Counted from the first letter of the stretch, positions 36,568 through 37,172 are shown. The stretch is 42,689 nucleotides of DNA from a virus (IMGVR_UViG_2851938318_000009:1-42689), one strand, 5' to 3'. The notes: a model not told the origin generated them from the sequence alone. A program made the numbers and translations.

Positions 36568-36623
36568 TTTTCTGGTGACGTTTGGCGGTATCAGTTTTAC
36601 TCCGTGACTGCTCTGCCGCCGTT
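36568..36623 (+). ncRNA. dicF: DicF small RNA
   Basis: TTTCTGGTGACGTTTGGCGGTATCAGTTTTACTCCGTGACTGCTCTGCCGCC followed by T5 matches, from memory, the ~53-nt DicF sRNA of the Qin dicB operon. Confidence 0.75.
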
Positions 36624-36795
36624 TTTAAAGTGAATTTTGTGATGCGGTGAATGCGGCTAAGCGCACGCGGAACAGTTAAAACCAAAAACAGTGTTATGGG
36701 TGGATTCTCTGTATCCGGCGTTAATTGTTAACTGGTTAACGTCACCTGGAGGCACCAGGCACTGCATCACAAAATTCATTGTTGAGGACGCGATA

Positions 36796-36984
36796 ATGAA
36801 AACGTTATTACCAAACGTTAATACGTCTGAAGGTTGTTTTGAAATTGGTGTCACTATCAGTAACCCTGTATTTACTGAAGATGCCATTAACAAGAGAAAA
36901 CAAGAACGGGAGCTATTAAATAAAATATGCATTGTTTCAATGCTGGCTCGTTTACGTCTGATGCCAAAAGGATGTGCACAATGA
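36796..36984 (+). CDS. dicB: cell-division inhibitor DicB
   Basis: 62 aa MKTLLPNVNTSEGCFEIGVTISNPVFTEDAINKRKQERELLNKICIVSMLARLRLMPKGCAQ with GAGGA ribosome-binding site. Confidence 0.8.
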   Translation: MKTLLPNVNTSEGCFEIGVTISNPVFTEDAINKRKQERELLNKICIVSMLARLRLMPKGCAQ

Positions 36985-37172
36985 ATTCAGCATTTGCGCT
37001 TGTTCTGACAGTTTTTCTTGTTTCCGGAGAGCCAGTTGATATTGCAGTCAGTGTTCACAGGACAATGCAGGAGTGTATGACTGCAGCAACCGAACAGAAA
37101 ATTCCCGGTAACTGTTACCCGGTCGATAAAGTTATTCACCAGGATAATATCGAAATCCCGGCAGGTCTTTAA
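36981..37172 (+). CDS. ydfD: YdfD-like small membrane protein
   Basis: 63 aa MNSAFALVLTVFLVSGEPVDI…; ATGA start/stop overlap with dicB. Confidence 0.65.
   Translation: MNSAFALVLTVFLVSGEPVDIAVSVHRTMQECMTAATEQKIPGNCYPVDKVIHQDNIEIPAGL

Follow-up and report, generated by a model that had tools for sequence, protein, structure and literature searches.

Whether a prophage that carries the small RNA DicF and the cell-division inhibitor DicB holds a working copy of this module, and whether the copy has been kept there for the benefit of the host, is the question raised by a viral stretch of 42,689 nucleotides (nt) (IMGVR_UViG_2851938318_000009:1-42689, hereafter the window). A preliminary description of this DNA had placed a Qin-type module at 36568-37172, consisting of DicF, a DicB open reading frame (ORF) of 62 amino acids (aa) and then ydfD, and had taken its retention in an otherwise decayed prophage as a sign of selection. 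The identity and the order of the three elements were confirmed by Rfam, by Pfam and by alignment with Escherichia coli K-12. The segment is very probably a bona fide and apparently functional dicBF part of the early-left (PL-type) operon of a Qin/mEp460-type lambdoid prophage, located at the Qin site of E. coli RM9131. It is a new instance of a known and extremely common module, the mechanism of which is textbook knowledge for K-12. The argument for selection, as described below, was not supported.

In a scan of the whole window with the Rfam covariance models, the only DicF match was RF00039 at 36570-36621 (+), which covered the model in full length (1-52) with a score of 72.5 bits against a gathering threshold of 48 (E = 3e-14). 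From the alignment with the K-12 annotation, the 53-nt form of DicF was assigned to 36569-36621 (+). The interval given in the preliminary description was therefore essentially right, except that DicF starts one base inside it. The RNA is identical to K-12 dicF at 52 of 53 positions, and the sole change is in the last nucleotide (C53G). As nucleotides 1-52 are the same as those of K-12, the sequences for pairing with xylR and pykA (5' part) and with ftsZ (3' part) are kept. The changed base is located just 3' of the terminator stem, and both alleles give the same minimum-free-energy fold. The 3' end of DicF forms a terminator-type hairpin followed by a U run, as in K-12. G53 is found in 30 of the 66 sampled DicF-bearing loci, and C53, the K-12 allele, in 33 of them. 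DicF is embedded in the polycistronic dicBF unit between the ydfA-type genes and dicB, and its processing leader is the same as in K-12. In the annotation of RM9131 by the Prokaryotic Genome Annotation Pipeline (PGAP), dicB and ydfD are included and DicF is lacking, and the small RNA call is therefore a useful addition to the record.

The two protein-coding genes of the module were equally close to K-12. The dicB gene (36796..36984, +) encodes the 62-aa cell-division inhibitor, which is identical to K-12 DicB at 62 of 62 residues and matched Pfam PF05358 over residues 1-62 of 62 with 136.8 bits (cut-off 27; E = 1.9e-40). The ydfD gene (36981..37172, +) encodes a 63-aa lysis protein (DUF1482) with 62 of 63 residues identical to K-12 YdfD, the difference being V6A, and matched PF07358 with 92 bits (cut-off 25; E = 2.1e-26). 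The two genes overlap by 4 nt (ATGA), in the arrangement of translationally coupled genes. When 36380-37180 was aligned with K-12 Qin, five nucleotide differences were found over 36423-37180, namely C53G in DicF, two bases in the spacer between dicF and dicB, one synonymous change in dicB and the change in ydfD leading to V6A; up to about 36422, the sequences are unrelated. The substantial divergence from K-12 dicF and dicB, for which the preliminary description had proposed this alignment as a check, was not seen.

The RNA segments flanking DicF are also conserved. The structured leader (36423..36568, +; 146 nt) is identical to K-12 from 36423, upstream of which the sequence is unrelated, and when 36410-36670 is folded, it forms pairs with the 3' half of DicF and the sequence downstream. 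The dicF-dicB spacer (36622..36795, +) carries two substitutions as compared with K-12 and extends to the ribosome-binding site of dicB; its length is 174 nt in 65 of the 66 loci. It is strongly structured, with a minimum free energy of -65.5 kcal/mol (z = -5.2; 0 of 200 shuffled sequences as stable). Its closing helix of about 28 bp joins 36622-36649 with approximately 36760-36788 and reaches the dicB Shine-Dalgarno sequence. In the published processing scheme, RNase III generates a precursor of 190 nt as well as a 3' variant of 72 nt, RNase E generates the 5' end of the 53-nt form, and the intrinsic terminator its 3' end (PMC5069750; 10.1101/2023.04.14.536235); DicF species of 190 nt and 53 nt have been reported (PMC10448788). 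The predicted helices of the leader and spacer are plausible RNase III substrates and fit this scheme. A 190-nt species ending at 36621 would start near 36432, nine bases inside the start of the K-12 homology. The possibility that the GC-rich leader is a tRNA-like structure was rejected, as ARAGORN detected no tRNA in the window and an Rfam scan by E-value gave only DicF and a weak match to STnc100.

Upstream of the module, the control region has a Qin-type organization, with a divergent pair of helix-turn-helix (HTH) repressor and Cro-like regulator genes, and a predicted PL-like promoter between the repressor gene and ydfA. The gene for the DicC/P22-Cro-like regulator (34690..34917, -; Pfam P22_Cro, 59.3 bits), annotated as a Cro/CI family member in RM9131, is divergent from the gene for the DicA-type repressor of 135 aa (34995..35402, +). 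The repressor has an HTH domain only (Pfam HTH_3, 56.9 bits) and no S24 peptidase domain; like DicA, it is thus devoid of a self-cleaving peptidase domain. The predicted promoter, which would be the counterpart of dicBp, is at 35490..35518 (+; TTGACG-17-TAAATT; 9 of 12 matches in a consensus scan) and directly precedes a leader that is nearly identical to the K-12 dicBp leader from CATCAACACACCGCACGG on. The promoter and terminator scans gave no more sites than shuffled sequence, and only the site at the K-12 dicBp position was used. The first gene of the operon is the ydfA homologue (35595..35747, +; DUF1391, 94 bits in Pfam), which showed 91% identity to the K-12 ydfA region in blastn. It is followed, at the place of K-12 ydfB and ydfC, by a 121-aa ORF (35759..36124, +; PHROG 33007, E = 1.4e-81; no Pfam match), which also occurs in the isolated phage mEp460. 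A 66-aa ORF (36093..36293, -; PHROG 34441, E = 1.5e-50; no Pfam match; WP_000159335.1) lies antisense to the operon, and the two ORFs are convergent and overlapping, the same pair being present in mEp460.

Several observations weigh against a functional copy under Qin-type control. The preliminary description had put the module next to its repressor, and a DicA-type gene is indeed present about 1.2 kb upstream of DicF; however, its product is only 57% identical to K-12 DicA. Because of this low identity, the repressor is probably of a different immunity type than K-12 DicA, and we infer, rather than observe, DicA-type repression of the predicted promoter. In K-12, the repression of dicBp by DicA is relieved by the antirepressor Rem (10.1101/2023.04.14.536235; PMC10448788). 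A tblastn search with K-12 Rem gave no match in the window, so that no Rem-type antirepressor was detected in the same prophage. The cognate antirepressor is thus missing in cis, and this copy may be rarely expressed. The antisense 66-aa gene could interfere with read-through to DicF, although the same arrangement in mEp460 tempers this argument. The DicF hairpin was missed by the generic terminator scan because its loop exceeds the limit of the scan. The duplex between DicF and the ftsZ leader of RM9131 was calculated at -38.9 kcal/mol, and shuffled sequences gave -32.2 +/- 4.2 kcal/mol, with 32 of 500 as good. This energy is a crude whole-molecule measure that ignores intramolecular structure, and the identity with the experimentally mapped K-12 RNA was relied on instead. 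The Rem of mEp460 is identical to K-12 Rem at 81 of 83 residues. As a separate observation, mEp460 pairs this Rem with a repressor whose identity to K-12 DicA is likewise only 57%. Should Rem act on both repressors, the conserved C-terminal half (VLQCSPTWILFGDEDK onwards) is probably the part that is recognised.

The preliminary description had stated that DicF represses ftsZ and other targets and that DicB acts through MinC. This agrees with the published work on K-12 (PMC5069750, PMC6832061), and the K-12 mechanism is transferable, all functional parts having the same sequence. The steps below are taken over by this identity from K-12, where each has been shown experimentally. In the lysogen, the DicA-type repressor (34995-35402) would hold the PL-like promoter (about 35490-35518) off. 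Upon derepression, a single transcript would run through ydfA, the 121-aa ORF, the leader, DicF, the spacer, dicB and ydfD into the disrupted exonuclease gene downstream. RNase III would free the 190-nt precursor and RNase E the 53-nt DicF, with the 3' end made by the intrinsic terminator, or by an RNase III cut in the case of the 72-nt form. The repression of ftsZ by the 3' part of DicF, and of xylR and pykA by the 5' part, is known, as is the multi-copy distribution of the RNA (PMC5069750). Together with Hfq, DicF from the window would pair in the same way with the ftsZ ribosome-binding site and with xylR and pykA, leading to their repression; it would also repress the mannose transporter mRNA, as reported along with its processing (10.1101/2023.04.14.536235; PMC10448788). 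In enterohaemorrhagic E. coli (EHEC), DicF in addition activates pchA.

For DicB, the published work demonstrated binding to MinC with a block of the Z-ring and, via the same interaction, inhibition of ManYZ with approximately 100-fold resistance to lambda-type phages (PMC6832061). As the protein in the window is 100% identical to the one used in that study, it would be expected to bind MinC, to direct it to midcell and block Z-ring formation, and to inhibit ManYZ so that DNA entry of lambda-like phages is prevented. YdfD binds IspG and lyses dividing cells, an effect offset by DicB (PMC8835842), and the same antagonism would be predicted here. In the parental phage, the cassette would serve as a kil-like host-takeover function of the early-left operon. 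Expression at this locus would need spontaneous or stress-induced derepression, or a factor acting in trans, because rem is absent from it. Firing of this kind is known for K-12 dicBp, which is active spontaneously in a subpopulation and under urea or heat (10.1101/2023.04.14.536235; PMC10448788). The absence of rem is the one predicted functional difference from K-12 that can be pointed to.

The chromosome of E. coli RM9131, a bovine isolate, matched the window at 100%, and RM9131 is therefore the host. The excisionase and integrase genes (41123..42689, +, from the RM9131 annotation) are at the right end, where the integrase DNA shares 99.3% identity with the intQ remnant of K-12 in blastn. 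Directly beyond the integrase gene, just past the end of the window, RM9131 carries rspB and then rspA. The prophage is assigned to the Qin attachment site because its integrase resembles the intQ remnant and because rspB adjoins it. In the RM9131 annotation, the right half consists, in order, of a truncated O-like replication gene, YdaT, the Cro-like regulator, the divergent HTH repressor, the DUF1391 gene (ydfA), the 121-aa ORF, the 66-aa ORF on the opposite strand, DicF, dicB, ydfD, an exonuclease gene split by the insertion sequence (IS) IS1203, xis and int. The left half carries the DUF3927 and DUF6645 genes, lysis genes of the holin, lysozyme and Rz types, genes for terminase, capsid and portal, a complete set of tail genes, tail fibres and, adjoining uspF, three genes for NleG-type effectors. 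The effector genes are a tandem of three NleG/DUF1076 type III effectors at the tail-fibre end of the prophage (window 1-2001, -).

Two further small RNAs were observed in the left half. The anti-GcvB small RNA AgvB (31601-31662, +; 96.5 bits) is abutted on the opposite strand by a full STnc100 (31663-31853, -; 143 bits), and the pair is placed like the leader of a late operon, with the left copy of IS1203 on one side and the DUF6645 gene on the other. In addition, the chromosomal flank on the left (uspF, ompN, nifJ ... trg ... narZ; RM9131 1.845-1.945 Mb) is inverted as compared with K-12, while the right flank (rspB, rspA) is not, and uspF in K-12 flanks Rac, not Qin. From this difference between the flanks, the prophage sits on a large inversion joint, and it may be a hybrid of two prophages.

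The right copy of IS1203 (IS3 family; 37707..39016, -) interrupts the exonuclease gene as a simple insertion, which is marked by a target duplication of 3 bp (GAC) and has the flanks ...TTTGAC / IS / GACGGG...; an ALIL frameshift pseudoknot was detected in the element by the Rfam scan. The 5' fragment of the ydfE-type exonuclease gene (37266..37709, +) is annotated as incomplete, its stop codon being provided by the end of the IS. The 3' remainder (39017..41050, +) encodes an Rv2179c-like 3'-5' exoribonuclease domain (Pfam PF16473, 226 bits), and the reading frame picks up exactly past the duplicated GAC. The gene is uncut (2472 nt) in phages Tritos and mEp460. The left copy of IS1203 (32234..33543, +) has no target duplication (flanks ...CCAGAT / IS / TCACGA...) and sits directly between the truncated O-like replication gene and late-region DNA. 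The two copies are in inverted orientation. The resulting inverted repeat of 1318 nt was reported as 100% complementary, but an exact string comparison revealed at least one difference; the near-identity of the pair hints at recent transposition. In addition, the tape-measure gene is split by an IS91-family element (window 12093-13645).

The left IS1203 marks the loss, relative to mEp460, of the 3' end of O, P, nin, Rem and Q. The corresponding mEp460 segment (L093:1-7144), with Q, RusA, Rem, a hok-type gene, LygF and the 3' end of the primosomal gene, was not matched anywhere in the window. The reciprocal joint of an inversion mediated by IS1203, with complementary flanks, was not found in the RM9131 regions 1.69-1.74 Mb and 1.845-1.895 Mb. 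These two regions contain more IS1203 copies without target duplications, and they match the mEp460 segment at about 86% only, in a different prophage at the ompW site. Because the reciprocal joint was not found, the P/nin/Rem/Q segment is termed absent from this locus, and not deleted. According to the annotation, genes for lysis, terminase, head, tail, fibre, excisionase and integrase are intact. The prophage is disabled by the three IS insertions and the absence of the P/nin/Rem/Q segment, yet it is largely intact and is not decayed in the manner of K-12 Qin. The statement that the module persists in an otherwise decayed prophage thus had to be given up: nearly all genes are kept, and the defects are limited to the three insertions and the missing P, nin, Rem and Q.

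The distribution of the module bears on why it is there. The 416-nt dicF-dicB segment was found in 4650 of 5426 complete E. coli genomes (about 86%) at 10,739 places, with a median of two per genome and a maximum of nine. In RM9131 itself, six places matched the wider query. Another DicF cassette is located in the ompW-site prophage, at a distance of about 260 kb (L094:33118-33864; 1,723,117-1,723,863, minus strand). It is 97.9% identical over 373 nt, has the C53 allele, and is linked to genes for a DicB that has diverged strongly (METLLPNVNTSEGCFDIGVLLSNREF...) and for a divergent YdfD-like protein. The G53 allele could serve as a copy-specific marker for which DicF copy is expressed in the multi-lysogen, C53 marking at least the ompW-site copy. 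Identity of the module to its phage counterparts is 99.3-99.5% for HannyBb, Tritos and PhiR42_1 and 97.3% for mEp460. Both Tritos and mEp460 carry it at the same early-left position, between the repressor and exonuclease-xis-int, and Tritos annotates DicF there. An unannotated stretch of 247 nt in the record of Aeromonas phage AP1 (MT713136.1, 254 kb; 249906-250152) is 100% identical to window 36559-36805, covering DicF and the spacer, and looks like contamination or an assembly artefact.

A selective retention in a decaying prophage for a benefit to the host, either by regulation of division and metabolism or by ManYZ-dependent phage exclusion, is possible, but we consider it somewhat improbable for this locus. 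The presence of the segment in 4650 of the 5426 complete genomes agrees with such a benefit, as does the intact module in the heavily decayed K-12 Qin. The operon is kept in many strains despite its toxicity (PMC5069750), and in K-12 the DicB-dependent resistance to lambda-type phages reaches about 100-fold (PMC6832061). However, the prevalence is equally explained if the module is standard cargo of a very common phage family. The window does not discriminate selection from recent inheritance: nearly all the neighbouring phage genes are intact too, the locus shares 94-98% identity with the isolated phage mEp460, the near-identical IS1203 pair hints at recent transposition, and the genome has other copies, so that losing this one would cost little. 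Because the surrounding genes are as well preserved as the module, there is no basis to infer selection at the locus, and the step from retention to selection in the preliminary description is not supported, given the equal preservation of the neighbours, their 94-98% identity to mEp460 and the near-ubiquity and multiple copies of the module. From this context, we regard the module as inherited from an ordinary temperate phage and not specially retained. The idea of host benefit or phage exclusion is plausible and has already been published for K-12 (PMC6832061), and the window adds nothing to it. On the other hand, at the attachment site that it shares with K-12 Qin, the locus is a clean natural intermediate between that heavily decayed prophage and a viable phage of the mEp460 type, and it could serve in a population-level test of dicBF outliving its neighbours during prophage decay.

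It could also be proposed that the module is silent cargo, with this copy transcriptionally dead or irrelevant. The window has no Rem homologue and misses the P/nin/Rem/Q segment, the operon contains an antisense ORF, the same genome has at least one more DicF cassette about 260 kb away, and dicBp is repressed in K-12 under standard conditions. Nevertheless, we judge this unlikely, since K-12 DicF accumulates in stationary phase and dicBp fires without Rem, spontaneously in a subpopulation and upon induction by urea and heat. The predicted promoter, the leader, the processing structures and the ORFs are all intact here, and the antisense gene is present in mEp460 as well. A chance resemblance or a degraded pseudo-copy has next to no probability, given the E values of 3e-14 in Rfam and of 1.9e-40 and 2.1e-26 in Pfam, only five differences from K-12 and two intact ORFs. 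An apparently functional dicBF segment inherited with its phage thus accounts best for the locus.

The composition of the module was compared among 88 DicB loci, consisting of six species-representative genomes, 80 viral contigs, K-12 and phage Tritos. The leader, DicF, the spacer, dicB and ydfD occur together in 74 of them, and 13 have neither the leader nor DicF. In 12 of these 13 DicF-less mosaic loci (L013, L016, L018, L023, L025, L027, L029, L041, L043, L075, L079 and L085), there is a recombination joint 84-86 nt ahead of the dicB start codon, at about 36711 of the window; in the thirteenth, L028, the contig ends 97 nt upstream of dicB, and the joint is not placeable. As judged from these 13 loci and from the joint shared by 12 of them, DicF and DicB-YdfD are separable modules. 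The 80 viral-contig loci are biased to near-identical DicB, so that no analysis of selection on DicB versus YdfD can be drawn from them. A single-protein query for distant DicB relatives in the species-representative genomes found only Escherichia, Shigella and one mis-binned metagenome-assembled genome.

The spacer showed some likeness to the small RNA STnc100 (Rfam RF02076). Its score of 34.5 bits (E = 1e-5 in a search of 801 nt) is below the gathering threshold of 47, and sub-threshold matches were also found in E. albertii (37.7 bits) and in a P1-like plasmid (40.8 bits), making three contexts in all. The spacer shares GGTGAAT and the hairpin CACCNGGAGGCACCNGGCAC with true STnc100. One spacer hairpin keeps its pairing by a compensatory double change, from CCTGG/CCAGG to CCGGG/CCCGG; counterparts of the spacer are at L011:2324-2533 and L096:2634-2771. 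The spacer may be a structured RNA of a related kind, or a dicB leader gated by RNase III. A put-type antiterminator of phage HK022 was also considered for the leader or spacer and found no support, the motif CACCNGGAGGCACCNGGCAC being absent from the early regions of HK022.

In the P1-like plasmid of 93 kb, tRNA-Asn, tRNA-Thr and tRNA-Ser take the place of DicF between a leader homologue (92% over 98 nt) and a spacer homologue (79% over 139 aligned columns). By sequence similarity, the homologous segments are 36449-36546 and 36643-36766 in the window, L096:1501-1597 and 2634-2771, and 68791-68892 in P1 (NC_005856). The plasmid region gave no Rfam match to DicF and has no dicB downstream. P1 carries the leader homologue, annotated as a 'dicF-like region', downstream of the C1-controlled Pban and upstream of the tRNAs; P1 and P1-like plasmids thus have tRNA-Asn/Thr(/Ser) as cargo where the window has DicF. 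It could be imagined from this arrangement that the leader and spacer are a portable RNA-processing scaffold with exchangeable cargo, in which the spacer is perhaps a second regulator of the STnc100/PasD family or an RNase III-gated switch of dicB translation. The stable spacer fold with its helix up to the Shine-Dalgarno sequence, the STnc100 matches in three independent contexts and the compensatory hairpin change are compatible with it. We hold this to be quite unlikely. The likeness to P1 could equally be plain mosaic ancestry, and the 'dicF-like region' of P1 is already annotated. The modularity of scaffold and cargo is a lead, not a finding.

Among the closest known systems is the dicBF operon of K-12 Qin. 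It and the window share the attachment site, 52 of 53 nt of DicF, 62 of 62 residues of DicB, 62 of 63 of YdfD, an identical leader of 146 nt and a near-identical spacer of 174 nt, and they have the same order of repressor, promoter, ydfA ... dicF, dicB, ydfD, exonuclease and integrase. In K-12 the operon is ydfABC-dicF-dicB-ydfD-ydfE, whereas in the window the 121-aa ORF and the antisense 66-aa ORF replace ydfB and ydfC. The exonuclease gene is cut by IS1203 in the window and by IS2 in Qin. Unlike Qin, the locus in the window has no rem, while it keeps the lysis, head and tail genes that Qin has lost. EHEC strains (O157:H7 Sakai and 86-24) also have multi-copy dicF, where DicF is reported to activate pchA under low oxygen (PMC7873438); RM9131 resembles them as a pathogen-type genome with several dicF copies and with NleG effectors on the same prophage.

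Phage mEp460_ev081 is another close system, and its collinearity with the window extends from the O-like gene up to the integrase, with identities of 98% for 33544-37691 and 94% for 39013-42689. The phage has the same repressor, ydfA, 121-aa ORF, antisense ORF, DicF, dicB, ydfD, exonuclease, xis and int. Of the two, only mEp460 has intact exonuclease and O-like genes together with LygF, the hok-type gene, Rem, RusA and Q, and the window has two copies of IS1203 instead. A more distant parallel is kil of phage lambda, a division inhibitor of the early-left operon that blocks FtsZ-ring assembly during lytic development (PMC3961180). Kil acts on FtsZ via ZipA, whereas DicB acts via MinC and DicF at the ftsZ mRNA. 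The dicBF cassette and kil have the same operon position and the same outcome.

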